Below are positions 1,111 to 28,088 of a stretch of DNA of 36,917 bases, one piece after another (position 1 is the stretch's first letter; each line of letters begins with the position of its first letter). This stretch comes from a virus (Duplodnaviria; Heunggongvirae; Uroviricota; Caudoviricetes). A model generated the notes under the pieces. That model was not told the DNA's origin and did no database searches. It was given only the letters and a program-made list of their open reading frames with translations. Both the position numbers and the translations under genes were made by a program. The stretch lies in IMG/VR virus record IMGVR_UViG_2711768076_000013. One strand, 5' to 3'.

Positions 1111-1482
1111 TCATAAGTACCGATATGATTGCGGGGCCGTTATGTTATCACCTAATGAACTTAGATGAAGCGGTTGATCATAGATTTTTAGATTGCCAAT
1201 TTCTATAGCAAAGGCTTTTTCTTTGCTATGAAAATATGAGTCAAAAAATTGTTTGCTGATACCTGCGTATTGGCTTGTTTTTTCCCATACAATACTTGGC
1301 TTGTCTTCTATAACATCTGCAATGTCAAATTCAGCAACAACTTTACCGACAGGCATTGTTGAATAAATAACCACAGATTTTACATCCGGTTTTTTGAAAA
1401 TTCCTTTTCGGAATTCAAATTTCTTTGTTCCATTAAGGATTTTTTCTACATGCTCTGGGTTAATTGACAATAATACTTTCAT
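1111..1482 (-). CDS. ASCH-domain (PUA-like) protein, last gene of cargo cassette
   Basis: Start taken at MKVLLSINPEHVEKILNGTKKFEFRK (the ORF track extends to 1494); this N-terminus resembles the ASCH fold of E. coli YqfB as recalled. AT-rich. Overlaps the stop of the upstream gene, so likely translationally coupled. Confidence 0.5.
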   Translation of the reverse strand: MKVLLSINPEHVEKILNGTKKFEFRKGIFKKPDVKSVVIYSTMPVGKVVAEFDIADVIEDKPSIVWEKTSQYAGISKQFFDSYFHSKEKAFAIEIGNLKIYDQPLHLSSLGDNITAPQSYRYL

Positions 1483-2530
1483 TGACGCCACCAAGTTTAA
1501 TAATGCTATTAAACTGTTCGTTTGTTAACTTCATGATCCCCCAGTAAGCTCGCGGGGATAATCCTACTTCAGAAATAAGTTTAGCACGATTTAGTCTTTT
1601 GGGCAAAGCAAGGTTATATGTAAAGCTTATAATATATGGGTATTTTTTTGTTCTATAAAAACTTTTAAGCTCAGATTCTGTAAAAACAGAATATCTAGAA
1701 CAGTAATTTAGAAATTCTTTCTCTGTAACGAAAGAGTTTATATTTCTAACTTTTTCTACTACACATAAAGAAGTAGCAACAGAACGGTAATATGCAGGCC
1801 CTTGATTATCGGATGTTCGGTATATAACGATTATATCGTTTGGCTTCATTAATTCAACATCTGACATGCCACAAATATATACTTTTCTAATGCTATTTGC
1901 ATATGATACATCAGCAACAACGTCTGGTGACTCTGTAATTAATTTTGAGTCAGGGAATAAACGAGTATGAAATACGGGGTATATTGAAAGCAAGAATTTA
2001 TTTTCACTGCCTCTGTTATTAATAAATGGATAATCTGACAGTATATCGCCAGTAAGAGCATTACTATTCATTTCTTTTATTAGTACTCGCTCTACACCAT
2101 TTTGAGATTCTTTTACTCCAATATCTATAAAGCCATAGATTTTGAATAGTCTAATTAAGTAGTCATGTTTTTCAAAAACAGTCACATATATATTGTTAGC
2201 ATTATTATCTAGAGCGTGATCGAATATTTTTTTTAAAAATCGTTGACCACGAAGAGTTCCTTTTGGATTAAATTTAAATGTTCCAACTTTTAGATGAATA
2301 CCATCAGGAATATTTGGTTTTGTATCTTCAATGATACCCACTTCTGTTTTTAGATACAAAAAACCATCAATTTTATTTTGTTCATCATAAAGGACATATG
2401 CATAATCATTTGATTTACATTTAGAATGGAACCAATCAATAAACCCATGAGCATAATCGGATTTTAAAGAGTCAAAAAAAACATCAGAAAAATCTACTTG
2501 ATTAAAAGGTATGTATTTTAAGTTTTCCAT
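1460..2530 (-). CDS. GNAT-like acetyltransferase-fold protein with extra C-terminal domain (cargo)
   Basis: 356-aa ORF. The segment NIYVTVFEKHDYLIRLFKIYGFIDIG resembles GNAT motif B and GTLRGQRFLKKIF lies where motif A would be. Very AT-rich. Start codon 2 nt from the stop of the upstream gene. Confidence 0.45.
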   Translation of the reverse strand: MENLKYIPFNQVDFSDVFFDSLKSDYAHGFIDWFHSKCKSNDYAYVLYDEQNKIDGFLYLKTEVGIIEDTKPNIPDGIHLKVGTFKFNPKGTLRGQRFLKKIFDHALDNNANNIYVTVFEKHDYLIRLFKIYGFIDIGVKESQNGVERVLIKEMNSNALTGDILSDYPFINNRGSENKFLLSIYPVFHTRLFPDSKLITESPDVVADVSYANSIRKVYICGMSDVELMKPNDIIVIYRTSDNQGPAYYRSVATSLCVVEKVRNINSFVTEKEFLNYCSRYSVFTESELKSFYRTKKYPYIISFTYNLALPKRLNRAKLISEVGLSPRAYWGIMKLTNEQFNSIIKLGGVNESIIVN

Positions 2531-2532
2531 GT

Positions 2533-3315
2533 TTACAATCCTATTTTAAAATCACATGATAAGCAAATTGATTTAGTTTTAGATATGACGGCGAGTGTTT
2601 TCCCCGGAGTTTGACAATTAGTACAAACATTCCAATTTTTCGGTTTTCCATCAATCTTATATATGTTGGCTAAAATATCATCTAAAGGAAAAAATGTTTT
2701 CATCATGTCTATAATGCTTGCTGCATAGTTTTTCTTTGCCTCGACTAATTTTTGTTCAGGCATGTTTTTATCATTTATCAAGCAATGAACCAGGTTATTA
2801 AGAGGCTCTTGATATATCTCCTCTCGAAAAATTAGAAATGCACTTAAAAAGTCTTTACGTATTTCTTTATTATTACTTTTACCTAAGTGAATTACTTTAT
2901 TTCTTTCTTTGCGCAAAATATCATAAATTTCATTAAAGCGCGGTGAAAGATTTCGCCCACTGATACTTTGTGCTATTCTATGTAGCTCGGTTGCGTCTAA
3001 TGTTGAACATTCGAAAAATGATTTGTTTTTATAGCAGTCTTTTACTTCTTTTAAAAGTAAATAAACACTATGCTCAGCAATTATAGACTTTAGATATATT
3101 TCAGCAGAATTAAAGAGTATTACCAAGCCAGATTGAAAGAAACTCTCTTTTTCGGATATTAAGCGTTTCAGTCGTTGTTCTTCTGTTTCAGGTTGAGCTG
3201 GGGCTTGCAATAACTCAATGTCAGAATAAAAATGTAAGTAGAATGTTTTAATGAAAAACTCAAGGTTCCTTTTGGCATAAAGAAGCATCTCTTCATTGTT
3301 AGGAAGGTCTGTCAT
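2533..3315 (-). CDS. Hypothetical protein with HEPN-like R-N-x3-H motif and C-terminal CxxC..CxxC zinc ribbon (cargo)
   Basis: 260-aa ORF. Contains ERNKVIH (Rx4H with N after R, as in HEPN RNases) and a C-terminal CTNCQ...CLSCD. AT-rich. Its ATG directly abuts the cI stop (TAAATG on the coding strand). Confidence 0.4.
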   Translation of the reverse strand: MTDLPNNEEMLLYAKRNLEFFIKTFYLHFYSDIELLQAPAQPETEEQRLKRLISEKESFFQSGLVILFNSAEIYLKSIIAEHSVYLLLKEVKDCYKNKSFFECSTLDATELHRIAQSISGRNLSPRFNEIYDILRKERNKVIHLGKSNNKEIRKDFLSAFLIFREEIYQEPLNNLVHCLINDKNMPEQKLVEAKKNYAASIIDMMKTFFPLDDILANIYKIDGKPKNWNVCTNCQTPGKTLAVISKTKSICLSCDFKIGL

Positions 3316-4272
3316 TTAAATATCCTTATATATACCAAAACATTTTGCTATTACATTAATATCCGCTAATAGACATTCAAAAGTTGTACTTTCATTAGAT
3401 ACTTTTACTTTTGCAATTGGAATTCTGGTTAGATCTCTAACACTAAATTTTCCTTCGATTTCAACTAACCATTTTCCATCGGTTACTTCATCAAATGCTT
3501 TGTCTGCAAGATATACATTTCCTTCATCTACTATAGATATGGGGTTTTTCACCTTGCTGGGTAACATGGTTTTATCAAAAGGGAGATAATTTGTATCAAA
3601 CAACATACCATTTATAACTTTTTTCCGTGTGATAGCAATAATATCGCTCTTAGCGTCTTCAAAGACAGGACCATTACCGGTTGTTAGCCACATTAATGAA
3701 GCTCCGGTTTCAAGTGCGCACTGGATGATCCAATCAGCTGGAAAGGTATCTCTCATGTAACGATTGGCTAATGTGCTTTTTGAAACACCAATGTGATCCG
3801 CTAGAGCTTGCCTTGTCTTAAATCCATAGGCGATAACTATTCGCTCGATTGCCGCTTTTCCTCCTTGATTAACCTCAATGAGGCTCTCGTTCTTTCGGTG
3901 AGTATTGTTCTCATTTGGGGATTTTGTGTCTAAAGTGAGAGAATGAATCTCCTTACCATCTTTATGGTGGTTCTGTTCTGTATTATGTGTGACAGCCTCT
4001 ACTGTGTTATCGGTACCAAATGCCAACCATTCAACCGACACGCCAGTTTCCATGCTGCAGATTATGACCCAGTCGGCAGGGAAGGTATCACGAGCATATC
4101 TGTTCGCCATTGTGCTTTGGGATATCCCTAAGTGGTTACAGAATGCTTGACGTGAAGTGAAGCCATAAGCTTTCAAAATTCGGTCAATGACCTGTTGCCC
4201 TCCACGATTCTGCATGATTACAGTTTTCATTGCATCATCAACATGGCGAAATGTGATTTTGTGTGTTGACAT
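3316..4272 (-). CDS. cI: CI-type immunity repressor with two tandem N-terminal HTH domains
   Basis: 318 aa. Two diverged copies of a phage CI-repressor HTH (ILKAYGFTSRQAFCNHLGISQSTMANRYARDTFPADW and IVIAYGFKTRQALADHIGVSKSTLANRYMRDTFPADW), then a C-terminal domain resembling phage 186 CI as recalled. Divergent from the apl-like gene. Confidence 0.8.
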   Translation of the reverse strand: MSTHKITFRHVDDAMKTVIMQNRGGQQVIDRILKAYGFTSRQAFCNHLGISQSTMANRYARDTFPADWVIICSMETGVSVEWLAFGTDNTVEAVTHNTEQNHHKDGKEIHSLTLDTKSPNENNTHRKNESLIEVNQGGKAAIERIVIAYGFKTRQALADHIGVSKSTLANRYMRDTFPADWIIQCALETGASLMWLTTGNGPVFEDAKSDIIAITRKKVINGMLFDTNYLPFDKTMLPSKVKNPISIVDEGNVYLADKAFDEVTDGKWLVEIEGKFSVRDLTRIPIAKVKVSNESTTFECLLADINVIAKCFGIYKDI

Positions 4273-10176: not shown

Positions 10177-10220
10177 CGTAGATCATGCAGGTGCATGAAA
10201 ACCACTACATAAAGCGGGCA

Positions 10221-10239
10221 GGCGTGGCGGGGATACGAG
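10221..10239. other. Candidate cos cohesive-end sequence
   Basis: GGCGTGGCGGGGATACGAG; the first 13 nt match the 186/P2 cohesive-end sequence as recalled (GGCGTGGCGGGGAAAGCAT). Location between the replication region and the packaging genes is as expected. Confidence 0.4.
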
Positions 10240-10270
10240 CGCGCGCTCATTACTTTTATAATTCTAGGGT

Positions 10271-10276
10271 TATAAT
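10271..10276 (+). promoter_or_regulatory. Putative -10 element for the KAP NTPase gene
   Basis: Perfect TATAAT 29 nt upstream of ATG 10305, followed by AGGAG at 10293..10297. Confidence 0.35.
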
Positions 10277-10304
10277 ACGGGGCTGTCTTTCTAGGAGAAA
10301 ACAC

Positions 10305-11957
10305 ATGTCCTTAGAGTTTATCAAAGAACAGTTGTCAGATTTTATCTCATCTACAGAACCAGAAGTAATGGCTATACAGGGTGAATGGGGAATTGGTAAA
10401 ACCTATACTTGGAATACGTTCCTAAAAGATAATAAAGATAAGGTTGCATTTAATAGATATAGTTATGTCTCTCTTTTTGGTATAAATTCACTAGATTCTT
10501 TAAAGTATTCTATTTTTGAGAATGCAATTACAAAGGAATATATTGGAAATAAACCTGATTTGGAGACAGCAACAACAAACGCAAGTGGACTTTTTGAATC
10601 ATTTTCTCGAAAAGCAGCAGGTTTGTTAAAAGAAGTTCCTGTTGTAAAAAACTTCTCTACGACACTTGAAGCAATGTCATTTCTGACCGTTTCTAAAATG
10701 ATTGTAGTAATAGATGACTTAGAAAGGCGTGGCAAAAATTTAGATGTTAAAGATGTTTTAGGGCTAGTATCTCTATTAAAAGAGCAGAAGGATTGTAAGG
10801 TGGTTCTATTGCTTAACAATGGCACAGCTAGTATGGAGGATTATTCTACTTATAAAGAAAAGGTCATTGATAGAGATATCACTTACAATCCAACACCAGA
10901 AGAATGCGCAGATATAGCCTATAAAGGTGATTCTCATGTTTATAACTTGTTAAGTAAATATTCCATTTCTTTAGGTATCAAGAATATTCGAATCTTAAAA
11001 AAGATAGAACGTTTTTTCGTGTCCTTAATACCAAATATTATAGGTGATGTTGAGACAATTTCAAATGAAGTTGCGCATTCATTAACTCTGTATTGTTGGA
11101 GCCATTACGGATTTTCTCCAGAGGGAGATGTGCCATCACTAGAATATATTAGGGGAGTGAGGAATATATATACTTATAATGACAAGGAAGAAGGCCATGA
11201 GAAAATCTGGCTTAATACCTTGCTTAAATATGGATATAGAAAAACGAATGATCTTGATGAGGTTCTTATTGATATGGTTAGATATGGCTATCTTGATAAG
11301 AGCAGTTTCCAAAGACAAATAAGCCTAAGGAATGAGGAGATTACGCGTGATAATAAACGAGGTTCCTTATCTGAGGCATGGCAGTTCTTTCATAATTCAT
11401 TTGATGACAATCAAAATCAGGTTGTTGACAAGCTATATCAAGCGGTGGTTGATGGGATGAAGTATGTGACTCCAAGTGATTTAGATAATGTTGTCGGACT
11501 ATATAGGGATTTCGGAGAGAATGCTAAGGCGAGTGAATTGATTGAACAGTTTATTAATTATGGTAACGATGCTCTAAAGGAATATGTTCAATCTATTTAT
11601 GTGAATGTTCATCCCGTAAGAGATACTGAGTTGTTGTCAAAAATTCAAGCCTATTCTAAGATTATAAATATTGATGGTTCAATATATGATGTTCTTAAGA
11701 AATTATCAGGTCAGAATGGTTGGTCTGATAGACATGAGGAAATATTGGATGCTGCTTCAGTAGATGACTACTATCAATTATTTAAAAATGTCATTCTTGA
11801 TGGTGGTGATTCAATAATAGCTACGGCGCTTAAATTCGGAAATTTTAGTAATGGTTCTGATAGAATGAATCGTATAGGGAAAAAGGCAAGGGATGCCTTG
11901 ATAAGAATTGGAGATGAATCGGCGATTAATAAAATGCGTGTAAGGCGATTTTTGTGA
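10305..11957 (+). CDS. KAP-family P-loop NTPase (candidate anti-phage or abortive-infection protein)
   Basis: Walker A in QGEWGIGKTYTW and Walker B-like MIVVIDDLERRG, the KAP-family signatures. Strongly AT-rich compared with flanking phage genes. Sits at the P2 tin/old hotspot position between gene A and the portal gene. Confidence 0.7.
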   Translation: MSLEFIKEQLSDFISSTEPEVMAIQGEWGIGKTYTWNTFLKDNKDKVAFNRYSYVSLFGINSLDSLKYSIFENAITKEYIGNKPDLETATTNASGLFESFSRKAAGLLKEVPVVKNFSTTLEAMSFLTVSKMIVVIDDLERRGKNLDVKDVLGLVSLLKEQKDCKVVLLLNNGTASMEDYSTYKEKVIDRDITYNPTPEECADIAYKGDSHVYNLLSKYSISLGIKNIRILKKIERFFVSLIPNIIGDVETISNEVAHSLTLYCWSHYGFSPEGDVPSLEYIRGVRNIYTYNDKEEGHEKIWLNTLLKYGYRKTNDLDEVLIDMVRYGYLDKSSFQRQISLRNEEITRDNKRGSLSEAWQFFHNSFDDNQNQVVDKLYQAVVDGMKYVTPSDLDNVVGLYRDFGENAKASELIEQFINYGNDALKEYVQSIYVNVHPVRDTELLSKIQAYSKIINIDGSIYDVLKKLSGQNGWSDRHEEILDAASVDDYYQLFKNVILDGGDSIIATALKFGNFSNGSDRMNRIGKKARDALIRIGDESAINKMRVRRFL

Positions 11958-22630: not shown

Positions 22631-23228
22631 TCTGCTGCCACCGGGTTCAACACCACTGGAGCGCCGACTGGCGCAAACCTGCAGCGGGATTTCTGATCTG
22701 CAGGTGCCGCTTCGTGACTTGTGGAATCCGGCAACCTGTCCGGTCAGTTTCCTGCCTTATCTCGCCTGGGCGTTCTCTGTGGATCGCTGGGACGAGGGCT
22801 GGACAGAAAGCGTCAAGCGCCAGGTGGTGAAGGATGCTTTTTATATTCATCAGCATAAAGGGACCACCAGTGCCGTGCGGCGGGTGGTGGAGCCGTTCGG
22901 ATTCCTGATCCGCATTATTGAGTGGTGGCAGACCGGAGAAACACCGGGCACGTTTCGCCTGGATATCGGCGTGCAGGACCAGGGCATCACTGAAGATACC
23001 TATCTGGAACTTGAGCGACTGATAAGCGATGCCAAACCATGTAGCCGCCACATGATCGGCATGTCCATCAATCTGCAGACCAGCGGCCCGCATTGGGTGG
23101 GAGCCGCCAGCTATCTTGGCGAAGAAATCACGATCTATCCGTATATCAACGAAACGATTATTTCCGGTGGCACCGCGCATGAAGGCGGGGCGGTCCATGT
23201 TATTGACACAATGAGAGTGAATCCATGA
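22623..23228 (+). CDS. I: Baseplate/tail formation protein I
   Basis: 201 aa; overlaps J stop and H start. Confidence 0.75.
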
Positions 23229-24625
23229 GCACAAAATTTTATACCCTGCTGACGGATATTGGCGCGGCGAAACTTGCCAGCGCCGCCGCGCTCGGTGTGC
23301 CGCTAAAAATTACCCATATGGCGGTGGGCGATGGCGGTGGAGTATTGCCAACGCCGGACGCAAAACAGACGGCACTGGTAAATGAGAAACGCCGGGCTGC
23401 GCTGAATATGCTTTATATCGACCCGCAGAACAGCAGCCAGATTATTGCCGAACAGGTGATCCCTGAAAACGAGGGCGGTTGGTGGATACGTGAAGTGGGT
23501 CTGTTTGATGAGTCCGGGGCATTGATTGCCGTGGGCAACTGCCCGGAAAGCTATAAGCCGCAACTGGCTGAAGGTAGCGGGCGCACTCAGACCGTGCGCA
23601 TGGTGCTGATTACCAGCAGCACGGACAATATCACCCTGAAAATCGACCCTGCTGTAGTGCTGGCAACCCGCAAGTATGTGGATGACAAGGCACTGGAGCT
23701 GAAGGTGTACGCGGATGATCAGATGGCAAAACATCTTGCCGCACCGGACCCGCATTCACAGTACGCGCCAAAAGCCAGCCCGACATTTACCGGAACCCCC
23801 AAAGCGCCAACGCCAGCGGCGGGGAATAATACCACGCAGGTTGCGACCACTGCGTTTGTACAGGCGGCACTGACGGCCCTTATTAATGGTGCGCCAGCCA
23901 CGCTGGACACGCTGAAAGAAATAGCCGCAGCCATTAACAATGATCCGAATTTCAGTACCACCATTAACAATGCGCTGGCACTAAAAGCACCGTTGTCGAG
24001 TCCGGCACTCACCGGAACGCCAACAGCCCCCACGGCGGCGCAGTCGGTCAACAATACACAGATTGCCACTACGGCTTTTGTGAAATCGGCGATTGCAGGA
24101 ATGGTGGGTTCTGCACCTGCTGCACTGGATACACTGAACGAACTGGCGGCGGCACTGGGGAATGATCCGAACTTTGCCACGACAATGCTTAATGCGCTGG
24201 CAGGTAAACAACCGCTGGACAATACGCTTACCAATTTGAGTGGAAAGGATGTAGCTGGTCTTCTCACATACCTTGGTTTGGGAGAAGGCTCTGCATTGCC
24301 TGTTGGTGCAGGGGCGAATCAGATACCTGATATGGGTAGCTTCACGCTTTCTGTTTCAGGTACTGGATATCAAAAATTACCATCAGGTTTTATTCTTCAG
24401 TGGGGCTCAATCGGCGCACCAGGCATTGCACAGGATGTAGTAACCCATTTCCCGATTGCATTTCCAAACAGATGTCTGCGTGTTTTGGTCTCACAAGACT
24501 ACACACCAGATAGCGGGGCTGTTGGTTATATTGCCTGTGCAGGTTTTAGTCCCGACCCGGTTAAATTTATATCCAGAGCCAGTACTCCTGGCCTCGGCGC
24601 TTCATTTTTAGCGTTAGGCTGTTAA
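23225..24625 (+). CDS. H: Tail fibre protein H (constant N-terminus fused to invertible C-terminal segment, current orientation)
   Basis: 466 aa; internal tandem roughly 74-aa repeats; the C-terminus crosses the left inverted repeat at 24273..24308. Confidence 0.85.
24273..24308. repeat. Left inverted repeat / crossover site of invertible segment
   Basis: TTGGTTTGGGAGAAGGCTCTGCATTGCCTGTTGGTG; its exact reverse complement is at 26104..26139. Confidence 0.85.
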
Positions 24626-24646
24626 TTTAGCTATATGGAGTGAAAA

Positions 24647-25087
24647 ATGAATTACATATATTCCGCGACTACAAACTCTTTCTATCCGCTGGAGATGAAA
24701 GAGGATTACACTCAAGCTGACTCATGGCCAGATGATGCTGTTGAAGTTGATGAGCAAGTGTATATTGAGTTTTCCGGATTACCGCCGAAAGGAAAAATCC
24801 GTATCGCTGGAGAAAATGGTTTTCCTGCATGGTCCGAAATTCCACCACCAACACATGAGGAACAAATTGCTGCAGCCGAACTGGAGAAGCAGCAATTGAT
24901 TAATCAGGCCAACGATTATATGAACAGTAAACAATGGCCTGGTAAAGCGGCTATTGGTCGTCTGAAAGGTGACGAACTGGCGCAATATAATTTGTGGCTG
25001 GATTACCTGGACGCACTGGAACTGGTCGATACTTCCGGTGCGCCAGATATTGAATGGCCTACGCCTCCGGCAGTTCAGGCCAGATGA
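24647..25087 (+). CDS. G: Tail fibre assembly chaperone (active copy, P2 gpG-like)
   Basis: 146 aa after H; C-terminal WPTPP motif shared with the oppositely oriented copy (WPELPEA). Confidence 0.75.
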   Translation: MNYIYSATTNSFYPLEMKEDYTQADSWPDDAVEVDEQVYIEFSGLPPKGKIRIAGENGFPAWSEIPPPTHEEQIAAAELEKQQLINQANDYMNSKQWPGKAAIGRLKGDELAQYNLWLDYLDALELVDTSGAPDIEWPTPPAVQAR

Positions 25088-25661
25088 CATCCGGCGCGGT
25101 GCTGGTATCTGTTGCCGTCACCGCGTCAATGTAATCCAGCACAGCGTTAAGTCGGGTGGTTTCTGCCTGCGTCAGCTTCCGCCCGGCCTGCAATTTCAGT
25201 TGAATCAGACTGATGGAAGCCATTGCAGTATCAATCAGTGACTGACGCTGTGCTTCTGCCGCGTCTACTGCGGCGCAATGCTGTGCCTCAGTATCGGTCA
25301 CCCATTTCTCACCATCCCATTTATCGAATGGCGTTAACGGGGCGATAGTGGTTGTATTTTCAGGGTAATCACCCGGAGTTGTGATTTCTTTGGCGTCTCC
25401 CGTTTCGGTGTTATAGATGATTTCACCGCGATGGTCTGGCACATACTCCCATGAGTTTAAATCTGCTGAACGGCAGATTGCATAACCAGCTTTATGTATA
25501 CCTGGTGCATCTAAACAAGAACATGCCGGGATACCGACGCCAACAGCAAGATATTCAGTTGATGTGGAAAGATATTCCCGCGTCTTGCTGTCGTAGTTAA
25601 ACACGGTCACATCACCCGCTACCGTGGCAATCAGTTCGCTGTTTAATTTTGCCTGTGCCAT
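25059..25661 (-). CDS. Alternative tail fibre assembly chaperone (inverted copy)
   Basis: 200 aa on the opposite strand; start overlaps the stop of the alternative fibre C-terminus (TAATG). Confidence 0.7.
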   Translation of the reverse strand: MAQAKLNSELIATVAGDVTVFNYDSKTREYLSTSTEYLAVGVGIPACSCLDAPGIHKAGYAICRSADLNSWEYVPDHRGEIIYNTETGDAKEITTPGDYPENTTTIAPLTPFDKWDGEKWVTDTEAQHCAAVDAAEAQRQSLIDTAMASISLIQLKLQAGRKLTQAETTRLNAVLDYIDAVTATDTSTAPDVIWPELPEA

Positions 25662-26139
25662 TATGCAGCCCTCACAATGAAGTTAAATGCGACGTTGCGC
25701 GGCCGGTTTTCAGTGGCAACAGGAACGATTTTAGATGCATCAAAGCTAAAGTTTACAGTCCCATTACCTGCCCCTGAAGGCGCAAGAGTTAATCCTAAAG
25801 TTTGTGACACATTCTCAACAGTGACGCCAAATGCACCATCACAATAGATACTTGGGTACAATTGAGTATTACCAAACTTGCCAATTATATTTCTGATGGC
25901 ATCGCCCTGCGATGATAAGATTGCACGCCCAACATCAACCCCGCGCCCGTCATCCCAGCCGCGAATAAATTCACCGCGTAAATCAGGCAATTTATTTGTC
26001 GGGTAAGCCTTTGCCAGTTCCGGGTATTCTTCAGCAGAAAAAGCCGCACCATTGCATTTCAGCCAGCCTGTTGGCGGAGTGGCTGAAGGCCACGGAACAG
26101 GCACACCAACAGGCAATGCAGAGCCTTCTCCCAAACCAA
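25661..26139 (-). CDS. Alternative tail fibre C-terminal segment (promoterless; fused to H after inversion)
   Basis: Reading frame continues through the right inverted repeat and encodes the same [11 protein letters not shown] junction peptide as H, then a tail-collar-like region (GWLKCNGAAFSAEEYPELAKAYP...LPDLRGEFIRG). Confidence 0.7.
26104..26139. repeat. Right inverted repeat / crossover site of invertible segment
   Basis: Exact reverse complement of 24273..24308. Confidence 0.85.
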
Positions 26140-26206
26140 CGTTTATGAAAATGCAGAGATAATGGCTAACTGGCATCATCCCCGGTTTTTATTCAGGGGA
26201 TTGATC

Positions 26207-26773
26207 ATGCTTATTGGCTATGTACGCGTGTCAACAAATGACCAGAACACCGATTTGCAACGTAATGCACTGAACTGCGCGGGATGTGAGCGGATTTTTG
26301 AGGATAAAATCAGTGGCACTAAGTCCGACAGACCGGGGCTTAAAAAACTGCTCAGGACACTATCGGCAGGAGACACTCTGGTTGTCTGGAAGCTGGACAG
26401 ACTGGGGCGCAGTATGCGGCATCTTGTTACGCTGATAGAAGAGTTGCGCCAGCGTGGCGTGAATTTCCGAAGCCTGACTGACAGTATTGATACCAGTACC
26501 CCAATGGGCCGTTTCTTTTTTCATGTTATGGGTGCCCTGGCTGAAATGGAACGCGAACTGATAGTTGAACGTACCAGGGCAGGGCTGGCTGCAGCTCGTG
26601 CCAAAGGCAGAGTAGGTGGACGCCGTCCTAAGTTGACCACCGAACAGTGGGCACAGATTGGGCGTTTACTTGAGGCCGGAGAATCAAGACAGCGTATTGC
26701 ACTGATTTTTGATGTAGGCGTTTCTACTATTTATAGAAAATTTCCGGCAAATAAGAGCAATGAATCTCCCTGA
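26207..26773 (+). CDS. Serine DNA invertase (Hin/Gin/Cin/Pin family)
   Basis: Start at ATG 26207 (the ORF track extends upstream). N-terminus MLIGYVRVSTNDQNTDLQ has the catalytic serine context of resolvase/invertase enzymes; 188 aa; C-terminal HTH-like region. Confidence 0.9.
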   Translation: MLIGYVRVSTNDQNTDLQRNALNCAGCERIFEDKISGTKSDRPGLKKLLRTLSAGDTLVVWKLDRLGRSMRHLVTLIEELRQRGVNFRSLTDSIDTSTPMGRFFFHVMGALAEMERELIVERTRAGLAAARAKGRVGGRRPKLTTEQWAQIGRLLEAGESRQRIALIFDVGVSTIYRKFPANKSNESP

Positions 26774-26915: not shown

Positions 26916-28088
26916 ATGGCTCAGGATTACCACCACGGGGTGCGCGTTGTTGAAGTCAACGAAGGCACCCGATCCATTACCACGGTGAGCACCGCCATCG
27001 TGGGTATGATCTGCACGGGCGATGATGCCGATGCAAAAATGTTTCCTCTTAATAAACCCGTGCTGATCACTGATGTGCTGACTGCCAGCGGTAAAGCGGG
27101 TGAGTCCGGTACTCTGGCCCGTTCGCTGGATGCCATCGCTGACCAGGCAAAACCCGTGACCGTTGTTGTGCGTGTGCCGCAGGGTGAAACGGAAGACGAA
27201 ACCACGACCAATATCATCGGCGCTGTGACTGCTGAAGGTAAAAAAACAGGCATGAAAGCCCTGCTATCTGCCCAGTCACAGCTCGGCGTTAAACCGCGCA
27301 TTCTCGGCGTGCCAGGTCACGATAACAAAGCCGTTGCGACTGAGTTGCTGAGCGTGGCGCAAAGCCTGCGTGGGTTTGCTTACCTGTCAGCGTATGGCTG
27401 CAAGACGGTACAGGAGGCGATCACTTACCGTGAAAACTTCAGCCAGCGCGAAGGAATGCTGATCTGGCCCGACTTTACTGGCTGGGATACGGTGTTGAAT
27501 GCCGAAGCAACGGCATATGCCACCGCCCGTGCGCTTGGTCTGCGCGCCAAAATTGATGAGCAGACCGGGTGGCACAAAAGCCTGTCCAACGTGGGCGTGA
27601 ACGGTGTCACCGGAATTTCTGCAGATGTGTTCTGGGATCTGCAGGACCCGGCAACCGATGCGGGACTGCTTAACCAGAACGACGTCACCACGCTTATCCG
27701 CAAAGACGGTTTCCGCTTCTGGGGTTCCCGCTGCCTGAGTGATGACCCGCTCTTTGCCTTCGAAAACTACACCCGCACGGCGCAGGTACTGATGGACACG
27801 ATGGCAGAAGCGCATATGTGGGCGGTGGACAAACCGCTGAACCCGTCGCTGGCCCGCGACATTATCGAAGGTATCCGCGCCAAAATGCGCAGCCTGGTCA
27901 GTCAGGGGTATCTCATTGGTGGTGATTGCTGGCTGGACGAGTCGGTGAACGACAAAGACACGCTGAAAGCCGGAAAACTCACCATCGACTATGACTACAC
28001 GCCAGTGCCGCCACTTGAAAATCTGATGCTGCGTCAGCGCATCACCGATCAGTACCTGGTGAATTTTGCCAGCCAGGTCAGCGCGTAA
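26916..28088 (+). CDS. FI: Tail sheath protein FI
   Basis: 390 aa with AGGAGG upstream; size matches P2 FI. Confidence 0.85.

Follow-up and report, generated by a model that had tools for sequence, protein, structure and literature searches.

Tail-fibre switches that work by DNA inversion are already documented for the P segment of the e14 element in Escherichia coli K-12, the G segment of phage Mu, the C segment of phage P1, the Salmonella prophage Fels-2 with its fin gene, and P2-like prophages of EPEC. The fibre switches of Mu and P1 are the precedent for a resulting change of host range. In Mu, the alternative tip and chaperone pairs S/U and S′/U′ are placed on a constant Sc part, and the invertase gene lies directly to the right of the segment. 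In contrast, Hin of Salmonella flips a promoter, and the hin gene is located inside its invertible segment. For phages of the P2 kind, phase variation by inversion has been detected experimentally in EPEC (PMC4272514), and the inversion of the Fels-2 tail fibre beside fin has been described in a report that also cites the host-range precedent of Mu and P1 (PMC7953296).

We analysed a stretch of 36,917 nucleotides (the window), in which a first-pass annotation had proposed, from the sequence alone, a switch of this type. In the window, the tail and baseplate genes follow the P2 order V W J I H ... FI FII E T U D, with Baseplate_J, Tail_P2_I, Phage_tail_fib and sheath domains assigned by Pfam, and the control genes, a CI repressor and CII/CP76, are of the 186 type. 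Outside two cargo regions, it is collinear at 90–99.8% with an annotated prophage of E. coli SL124. These features identify a P2/186-like prophage (Peduoviridae), and all structural elements put forward in the first-pass annotation are present. We conclude that Pin/Gin-type inversion of a 1.86-kb segment very probably swaps the fibre tip and the Tfa chaperone of this E. coli prophage (Table 1). The same kind of element is found in the same kind of phage in EPEC E2348/69, in Fels-2 (fin) and in phages Cartapus, 500465-1 and pro483, and P2-like phage records annotate a DNA invertase and two tail-fibre assembly genes at this position. However, the tip pair varies from phage to phage, and most records share only 55–59% of the 4-kb region. 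P2 itself carries fun(Z) between G and FI, as the first-pass annotation had stated.

Table 1. Features of the invertible segment and its surroundings (coordinates in the window)
Feature	Coordinates	Strand	Basis or remark
Constant N-terminal part of tail-fibre gene H (P2 H-like), up to the crossover core	23225..24272	+	Pfam Phage_tail_fib N-terminal domain, E 5.5e-65
Left 26-bp crossover site TTCTCACATACC-TT-GGTTTGGGAGAA	24261..24286		core TT 24273-24274; imperfect hix/gix/pix-type dyad
Left arm of the perfect 36-bp repeat	24273..24308		includes atypical 21-bp patch 24288-24308
Variable fibre tip A, gp53-like C-terminal domain, fused to H in window orientation	24275..24625	+	Pfam Gp53-like_C, E 1.2e-13
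Tip A assembly chaperone, TfaP-like	24647..25087	+	Pfam Caudo_TAP, E 1.5e-37
Tip B assembly chaperone, TfaE-like	25059..25661	-	Pfam Caudo_TAP, E 8.6e-32
Variable fibre tip B, Collar-type, unfused in window orientation; would be H C-terminus after inversion	25661..26137	-	Pfam Collar, E 5.3e-16
Right arm of the perfect 36-bp repeat	26104..26139		repeat search and direct comparison
Right 26-bp crossover site TTCTCCCAAACC-AA-CGTTTATGAAAA	26126..26151		core AA 26138-26139; 26/26 bases as in e14 right site
Out-of-segment leader MMPVSHYLCIFINV, in-frame ATGATG start for the unfused cassette	26140..26179	-	plus strand overlaps conserved TGGCATCAT
Candidate Fis-dependent recombinational enhancer in the 5′ part of the invertase gene	26228..26291		position-conserved G..C 15-mers
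Serine DNA invertase, Pin/Gin family, 188 aa	26207..26773	+	Pfam Resolvase, E 2.2e-53, and HTH_7, E 1.4e-15

The H reading frame (23225–24625, plus strand) encodes 466 amino acids as the window stands, with the Phage_tail_fib N-terminal domain followed by Gp53-like_C, and becomes an uninterrupted in-frame frame of 508 amino acids after in-silico inversion. Both forms of H are annotated in relatives, tip B being the annotated C-terminus of H in SL124, and the inverted segment of relatives does not include the constant part. Downstream of each tip lies a separate Caudo_TAP gene, and the two pairs converge such that the 3′ ends of the tfa genes overlap by 29 nt. The first-pass annotation had described two alternative fibre C-termini, each with its own chaperone and in opposite orientations, and the Pfam assignments bear this out. 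Since the left site lies within H, inversion would swap the tip in frame by the fusion of coding sequences; a swap of the tip had been postulated by analogy with Mu and P1.

The closest relative of the locus is the e14 P segment. It shares the order of constant fibre part, tip, tfa, convergent tfa, tip and invertase, including the 29-nt overlap of the tfa genes; the invertases are 86% identical, the tip B chaperone is 88% identical to TfaE over 200 amino acids, tip B is 58% identical to StfE, and the tip A chaperone is 61% identical to TfaP over 102 residues. The published e14 repeat, TTGGTTTGGGAGAAGG, corresponds to the first 16 bp of the window repeat (PMC12529663). In contrast, the fibre gene of e14 is truncated and the element itself is lambdoid and defective, whereas H in the window is full-length and belongs to a P2/186-like prophage that appears complete; tip A reaches only 26% identity with the C-terminus of StfP, and the segment including repeats measures 1797 bp in e14 and 1867 bp in the window, with repeats of 16 and 36 bp, respectively. 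With Mu G, the locus has in common an invertase that is 74% identical, 26-bp sites with an AAACC-NN-GGTTT centre, paired tips and chaperones on a constant part, and the position of the invertase gene. It differs from Mu in the core dinucleotide (TT/AA instead of TC/GA) and in its outer half-sites, which are unlike each other, while the 34-bp repeat of Mu covers the whole site. Furthermore, the Mu segment is larger (~3 kb), its tip domains show no significant similarity to those of the window, where only TfaA weakly matches Mu U′ (30%, 73 residues), and Mu is a transposable rather than a P2-like phage.

A repeat search and direct comparison across the whole window confirmed the perfect 36-bp inverted repeats at the coordinates given by the first-pass annotation, within coding sequence, and both arms encode the same in-frame junction peptide of 11 residues. 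By our own arithmetic, about 1e-13 repeats of this length would be expected by chance in 36.9 kb (~7e8 position pairs, 4^-36). The search returned arms of 48 nt with 92% identity (24261–24308 and 26104–26151), within which perfect complementarity stops at 36 bp in both directions. These arms contain two 26-bp imperfect dyads in inverted orientation with matching 2-bp cores, and the cores are located at the outer edge of the 36-bp repeat, with the outer half-sites beyond it. Core and inner half-site are perfect in both sites, and the inner half-site of the left site equals that of the e14 left site. In nearly all related loci that keep a right site, its inner-end 14-mer starts 81–82 bp before the invertase ATG. 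The repeat had been regarded as the switch element; it is present, but the working unit is the 26-bp pix/gix-type site, not the 36-bp repeat as such. As a recombination substrate, the 36-bp repeat is ruled out because relatives invert with 15 bp. Its length is unusual, given that inverted repeats in relatives comprise 14–16 bp: only the outer 15 bp are typical, and the remaining 21 bp are a patch peculiar to the window sequence, whose full-length chimeric junction was found nowhere else among 5,426 complete E. coli genomes. The patch shows that an exchange not due to the invertase, or an error, took place between the arms. In a possible reading, this patch, which takes the repeat from 15 to 36 bp, would be a natural instance of gene conversion or of template switching between the arms of an invertase site.

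Exactly two crossover sites were detected in the window, with no third site at up to three mismatches, and a shufflon-like multi-inversion system with additional or cryptic sites was rejected for the window on this basis. Some P2-like relatives differ in this respect and carry three sites, which gives more variants (PMC4272514); we observed a third site in three related loci (L029, L056 and L072).

Comparison with public genomes provides a direct view of the inversion. When inverted in silico, the window aligns in one piece and along its full length (100% of the query) with E. coli SL124 at 99.4%, compared with 96.8% for the best match obtained without inversion; in a blastn comparison of the window with the SL124 region, both flanks run on one strand and the segment on the other. 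Two near-clonal pairs of isolates differ in the same manner: LS4 and NQ3 are identical over 8.6 kb except for a middle of 1872 bp that is exactly reverse-complemented, and GPEC1210 and GPEC1209 are identical over 8.3 kb except for such a middle of 1840 bp. In both pairs, the inverted middle is bounded by the 15-bp repeat TTGGTTTGGGAGAAG, to which the breakpoints map. Both orientations, the outcome that the first-pass annotation had anticipated for a working switch, are thus present in public genomes, including near-clonal pairs; among complete genomes with a coverage of at least 80%, 35 have the orientation of the window and 39 the opposite one. These alignments show that inversion is real in nature for near-identical loci, the window itself being one assembled orientation.

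It is extremely improbable that the repeat and the orientation differences result from general homologous recombination or assembly artefacts instead of site-specific inversion. Some IMG/VR contigs do stop at the sites or have mirrored flanks, which shows that assemblers struggle at this locus, and the 21-bp patch is evidence of some exchange or error between the arms in which the invertase had no part. However, the repeat shared in the isolate pairs is only 15 bp long, which is too short for RecA-dependent exchange, their inversions are exact (0 mismatches) in finished genomes, and the breakpoints fall on a 26-bp dyad site that belongs to a known family and lies beside a dedicated invertase. 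For e14, PCR has confirmed an inversion of the same type, and in P2-like prophages sequencing has revealed it (PMC4272514).

The enzyme adjoining the segment is a serine invertase with an intact open reading frame. It aligns over residues 1–184 with the Mu Gin structures 3UJ3 and 4M6F (E ~1e-92; 8e-93), and the catalytic serine that the first-pass annotation had called for is present as Ser9 and aligned with that of Gin. In the alignment with PinE and Gin, R7, S9, D64, R65 and R68 are invariant. The gene had been termed Hin/Gin-type; the Pin/Gin family is confirmed, but the closest relative is Pin of the e14 P segment and not Hin. Fis/enhancer-regulated invertases carry basic helix-B residues (Hin K47, K/R48 and K/R51) and, in the DNA-binding domain, Fis-contacting residues (Hin Q151, R154 and L155) (PMC3798978). 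In the window invertase, whose numbering is one below that of Hin, K46, K47 and R50 correspond to Hin 47, 48 and 51, and Q150, R153 and L154 to Hin 151, 154 and 155. Domains, catalytic and Fis-contact residues and site type are those of the Fis/enhancer-dependent Hin/Gin/Cin/Pin class, to which the invertase most probably belongs.

Following the general enhancer rules (PMC3798978 and PMC4784862), we searched for a recombinational enhancer. A hin-type enhancer lies within the 5′ portion of the invertase gene, at ~100 bp from the closest crossover site, and comprises two Fis sites spaced by ~47–48 bp (PMC3798978), and Salmonella Hin shares with the window the invertase subfamily and the 26-bp hix-type sites. 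In the window, G..C 15-mers are centred at +28 and +77 from the ATG, positions that are kept in Mu gin and e14 pinE; the first candidate Fis centre lies 96.5 bp from the crossover core, and the candidate cores are 49 bp apart, compared with 47 bp reported for hin. The synonymous diversity of the invertase gene is lowest in codons 1–12 (0.081 versus 0.27 overall). However, the second candidate core has a GC-rich centre, and its third-position conservation of 0.86 hardly exceeds the background of 0.79–0.84 in the rest of the gene. Taken as a whole, these features are suggestive of an enhancer within the 5′ portion of this gene, but not conclusive.

These data also bear on whether the locus is a fossil, in which the parts persist and inversion has ceased, for example through an unexpressed invertase or a non-functional enhancer. 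The window shows one orientation only, a consensus scan detected no sigma-70 promoter for the invertase, and the invertase is frameshifted in at least one relative (CP019275). Nevertheless, we consider a fossil very unlikely: the intact invertase gene is base-for-base that of SL124 over the compared stretch, although SL124 has the opposite orientation; LS4 and NQ3, for which inversion is the sole difference, have a 99% identical invertase; the cores and inner half-sites are perfect; and Pin paralogues of E. coli can act in trans on identical sites (PMC12529663).

Based on these observations, we propose a multistep mechanism in which (i) the Pin/Gin-family invertase would recombine the two inverted 26-bp sites; (ii) cutting at the 2-bp cores, TT and AA, would invert the 1863 bp between them; (iii) the inversion would exchange the C-terminal tip, gp53-like or Collar-type, joined in frame to the 350 constant N-terminal codons of H; and (iv) it would also bring the cognate Tfa chaperone gene to the downstream, co-transcribed position. 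The virions released by a lysogen population would then fall into two classes of receptor specificity, in the manner of Mu G, P1 C and e14 P. In this scheme, recombination is presumed to depend on Fis and the enhancer, and expression to come solely from the upstream late operon. That the host range really changes is suggested by the unrelated tip domains (Gp53-like_C and Collar) and by the Mu and P1 precedent. The switch fuses coding sequence as in Mu, P1 and e14, with the invertase outside the segment, rather than flipping a promoter in the manner of Hin: promoter-like matches occurred at chance level (4 versus 4.6 expected), none of them meaningfully placed, and coding-sequence fusion is preferred. 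A tyrosine-recombinase shufflon and a diversity-generating retroelement were set aside, the adjoining enzyme being a serine invertase; no reverse transcriptase was seen in the region examined.

The unfused cassette had been described as a promoterless reverse-strand ORF. On the minus strand, the sequence upstream of 26179 showed no promoter consensus, but the ORF is not start-less, as an in-frame ATGATG lies at 26179, beyond the segment. All 75 related loci with a right site, as well as Mu and e14, keep an in-frame ATG 12–14 codons outside the segment with no intervening stop. The silent cassette might be translated from this start into a tip-only protein that masks the receptor and blocks superinfecting phages, instead of or besides its role in the virion, and inversion would then toggle the identity of that protein. 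RefSeq annotates tip-only ORFs of 393–549 nt as coding sequences, and StfE2 of e14, which joins an outside leader to a gp53-like tip, is reported to lower T2 adsorption (PMC12529663); the right site and leader region of the window are close homologues of those of e14. We nonetheless regard such a function as doubtful. The sole Shine–Dalgarno-like element (GGGG) abuts the ATG in our reading, the middle of the leader varies non-synonymously, and its conserved parts overlap the crossover half-site. Moreover, the conserved ATGATGCCA reads as TGGCATCAT on the plus strand and fits an extended −10 about 30 nt before the invertase start, which we infer to be part of the invertase promoter; the ATG may be conserved for this reason. 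An open frame of 14 codons has a ~50% probability by chance, the loci are mutually related, and the tip left unfused in the window orientation is of the Collar type, whereas that of StfE2 is gp53-like. It is unlikely that the switch sets both the virion tip and, in the lysogen, a receptor-masking tip-only protein for superinfection exclusion; if true, this would extend the recent claim for e14 StfE2 to intact P2-like prophages.

In summary, Pin/Gin-type inversion with exchange of the fibre tip is a documented type of switch, and nothing here alters the current understanding of DNA inversion systems. The prophage and e14 have identical crossover sites, so that its invertase and the Pin paralogues of the host are expected to flip each other's segments, an expectation supported by work on e14 (PMC12529663). 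The main value lies in annotation: an H gene, a 'phage tail protein' fragment and a 'recombinase family protein' make up one switch, and the prophage would be able to present two receptor-binding tips. For phage therapy and host-range work on P2-like phages, the orientation found in an assembly is a snapshot, and both tips should be considered.

The window holds an intact P2/186-like prophage whose fibre locus is an invertible tail-fibre module of the Pin/P-segment type. In this prophage an integrase gene (1-1032) is followed by genes for the CI repressor and CII and by P2-type head, lysis and tail genes. The right flank matches the ybjL-to-grxA region beside the prophage of the E. coli genome SL124 at 99.8%. 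Genes were assigned with Pfam and PHROGs, which agreed for all of them; baseplate J and gpI genes lie upstream of the tail-fibre gene H. As the window stands, H encodes 466 aa. Inverting the segment between the crossover sites in silico (the flipped window) yields an uninterrupted H of 508 aa with the Collar tip at its end, directly followed by the Collar-tip chaperone gene through a TAATG stop/start overlap. Domains and both reading frames agree with the first-pass annotation, which had proposed two alternative C-termini on opposite strands, each with its own chaperone. It was also right to place the switch at a known variable locus, since between G and FI classical P2 has fun(Z), on the reverse strand. 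The 3' ends of the convergent chaperone (tfa) genes overlap by 29 nt (25059-25087), as in the E. coli K-12 prophage e14, and are flanked by an 18-nt, 89% inverted repeat (24997-25014 / 25123-25140), a consequence of the similar LDY(L/I)DA motif at the C-terminus of both products, whose genes lie on opposite strands.

Genes and crossover sites of the fibre switch in the window
Feature	Coordinates	Strand	Domain, site sequence or position
H, P2 H-type tail fibre	23225-24625	+	Phage_tail_fib N-terminal domain (E 5.5e-65); Gp53-like_C tip at present
Left crossover site	24261-24286		TTCTCACATACC-TT-GGTTTGGGAGAA
Chaperone, gp53-like tip	24647-25087	+	Caudo_TAP
Second chaperone	25059-25661	-	Caudo_TAP
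Collar-type fibre tip	25661-26137	-	Collar
Right crossover site	26126-26151		TTCTCCCAAACC-AA-CGTTTATGAAAA
Invertase	26207-26773	+	Resolvase + HTH_7
Tail sheath	26916-28088		downstream of switch

Since a single window shows one state only, the flipped sequence was built and searched, alongside the window as it stands, against 5,426 complete E. coli genomes. The flipped window matched SL124 in one piece (100% coverage, 99.4% identity), and the best match of the unflipped window in the same set reached 96.8%. In SL124, 24261-26139 is reversed with respect to both flanks by blastn, and the invertase gene is identical to the window's over the compared stretch. At a coverage of at least 80%, 35 genomes carry the orientation of the window and 39 the opposite one; a single orientation across a population had been named as a finding that would speak against a switch, and both are present in public genomes. 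The E. coli genomes LS4 and NQ3 are base-for-base identical over 8.6 kb except for a 1872-bp middle that is the exact reverse complement, and the same holds for GPEC1210 and GPEC1209 over 8.3 kb with a middle of 1840 bp. At the breakpoints of both pairs the common repeat is merely 15 bp, TTGGTTTGGGAGAAG, comprising the core, the inner half-site and one base, and the exchange is therefore localised to the 26-bp site. RecA-type recombination needs longer homology than this and is ruled out as the cause of inversion. The LS4/NQ3 invertase is 99% identical to that of the window. The segment of near-identical loci thus inverts in nature, and the accompanying exchange of fibre tips would be expected to change the host range.

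A repeat search of the window returned 48-nt arms (24261-24308 / 26104-26151) with 92% complementarity, which is perfect over the inner 36 bp (24273-24308 / 26104-26139) and ends there on both sides. The first-pass positions of this repeat were exact, and both arms lie within coding sequence for one common 11-residue peptide. By simple arithmetic (about 7e8 position pairs x 4^-36), some 1e-13 such repeats are expected by chance in 36.9 kb. Each outer end of the perfect repeat is the 2-bp core of a 26-bp hix/gix/pix-type site, an imperfect dyad, so that the outer half-sites are not part of the repeat and inversion affects the 1863 bp from core to core. With up to 3 mismatches allowed, the window contains no third site. 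The right site equals that of the e14 P segment at 26/26 positions, the inner half-site of the left site is likewise the same, and Mu gix sites share the AAACC-NN-GGTTT centre. The window's repeat begins with the 16 bp TTGGTTTGGGAGAAGG published as the e14 repeat (PMC12529663).

Among related loci the repeat is usually 14-16 bp long. Over 8.6 kb the window and SL124 show 17 differences, 12 of them clustered at 26104-26124 in flipped-window coordinates (24288-24308 as is), a stretch made up of the first 21 bp that the gp53-like cassette has after the repeat. Across more than 100 cassettes examined, the junction peptide occurs 39 times, 38 of them before a Collar tip, the sole exception being the window's gp53-like tip, which starts with the Collar cassette's GSALPVG codons; its relatives begin GLGEAAKRNVG and all have AAKRNVG. 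This chimeric junction was absent from the complete E. coli genomes (best full-length match 87.5%) and from the sampled IMG/VR loci. Such a distribution suggests that the gp53 arm took over about 21 bp from the Collar arm, which made the perfect repeat 36 bp long. The patch cannot be the work of the invertase, since strand exchange by serine invertases is confined to the 2-bp core; template switching or short-tract gene conversion between the arms are candidates, as is a consensus error.

Residues 1-184 of the 188-aa invertase align with the Mu Gin crystal-structure sequences 3UJ3 and 4M6F (E ~1e-92); identity of the enzyme to e14 PinE is 86% and to Gin 74%. Lack of a catalytic serine had been raised as a possible objection to the switch; Ser9 occupies the nucleophile position, and R7, S9, D64, R65 and R68 are invariant in the alignment with PinE and Gin. 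The homology-supported start is 26207 (MLIGYVRVS), and the upstream ATG at 26162, which begins the mechanical ORF, was set aside. Residues specific to Fis/enhancer-regulated invertases have been described for Hin, namely basic helix-B positions 47/48/51 and Fis-contacting Q151/R154/L155 (PMC3798978); all have counterparts here (K46, K47, R50 and Q150, R153, L154, respectively), as would be expected of a Fis-dependent enzyme. The hin enhancer spans 65 bp and lies ~100 bp from the nearest hix; the two 15-bp Fis cores at its ends are 47 bp apart from centre to centre (PMC3798978). In the window, two G..C 15-mers have their centres 49 bp from each other, at +28 and +77 relative to the ATG; these positions are common to Mu gin and e14 pinE, and the first centre lies 96.5 bp from the crossover core. 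Synonymous diversity among 74 unique invertase genes is lowest in codons 1-12 (0.081 vs 0.27 overall), where third-position conservation is 0.95-0.98, compared with 0.86 at the second candidate core and 0.79-0.84 elsewhere. By homology, a candidate enhancer likely lies at about 26228-26291; constraints on translation initiation, or hitch-hiking with the neighbouring site, could also explain why the 5' end is so strongly conserved.

The ORF of the unfused cassette had been called promoterless. No promoter consensus was found for it, which agrees with that description, but a start is present, as an in-frame ATGATG at 26179 (- strand), 14 codons outside the segment. An in-frame ATG is likewise retained in Mu, in e14 and in each of the 75 related loci that have a right site, RefSeq annotates equivalent ORFs as CDSs, and the e14 equivalent StfE2 is claimed to block phage T2 adsorption (PMC12529663), all of which favours expression as a tip-only protein. 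Against this stand, besides the missing promoter consensus, a poor Shine-Dalgarno context, non-synonymous variation in the middle of the leader, and the fact that the conserved bases read TGGCATCAT on the + strand (26171-26179), ~30 nt before the invertase start, where they plausibly form an extended -10 of the invertase promoter. We consider expression of the window's unfused cassette improbable. A terminator-like hairpin (26168-26187) overlaps TGGCATCAT.

Elsewhere in the prophage, 1111-3315 (-), between integrase and CI repressor, is absent from the SL124 prophage and encodes an ASCH-domain protein matching PADLOC PDC-M11B (E 5e-48), a 356-aa protein matching PDC-M11A (E 2e-130) and a 260-aa protein with a weak DUF3644 match; this cargo appears to be a candidate anti-phage defence system sited in a P2-like hotspot. 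At 10185-11957 (+), a KAP-family P-loop NTPase of 590 aa (PADLOC candidate PDC-S49, E 4e-27) stands where the SL124 prophage has AIPR and HNH genes, so that this is another variable cargo locus. The CI repressor (3316-4272, -) is 318 aa long, whereas the CI gene of SL124 has just 570 bp (~190 aa). It gives two separate matches to the Phage_CI_repr helix-turn-helix domain, and its DNA-binding domain may have been duplicated or fused.

Invertases 85-100% identical to the window's are encoded at 80 IMG/VR loci. Where a right site is retained, the distance from the start of its 14-mer to the invertase ATG is 81-82 bp in nearly all loci, and the left partner site lies 1.1-3.4 kb upstream. The tips of the 57 loci with both sites are very diverse (gp53-like, Collar and others, mixed), and either type can be fused to H. 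The invertase-side flank is mirrored on both sides of the segment in L026 (897 bp) and L080 (1310 bp); L037, L038, L072 and L059 are listed with them, the mirrored flank running up to the contig end in the others, and several IMG/VR contigs end within 61 bp of a crossover site. These are probably fold-back assembly artefacts from mixed orientations in the sequenced samples. The module class is already documented experimentally and annotated routinely: a DNA invertase and two fibre-assembly genes are annotated at this position in deposited P2-like phages of Escherichia, Klebsiella, Salmonella and Yersinia. In the closest phage-collection record (CP019275.1, 4686-5244), which was submitted as a circular "plasmid" (37.4 kb) from a pig E. 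coli, the invertase gene is annotated as frameshifted; if the frameshift is real, this would be a locked version of the switch. Three related loci (L029, L056, L072) contain a third crossover site, mid-way in a 3.3-4.1-kb region, and resemble in this layout the EPEC P2-like prophage with three repeats and four variants (PMC4272514); the additional site should permit several inversions and thereby more than two fibre tips.
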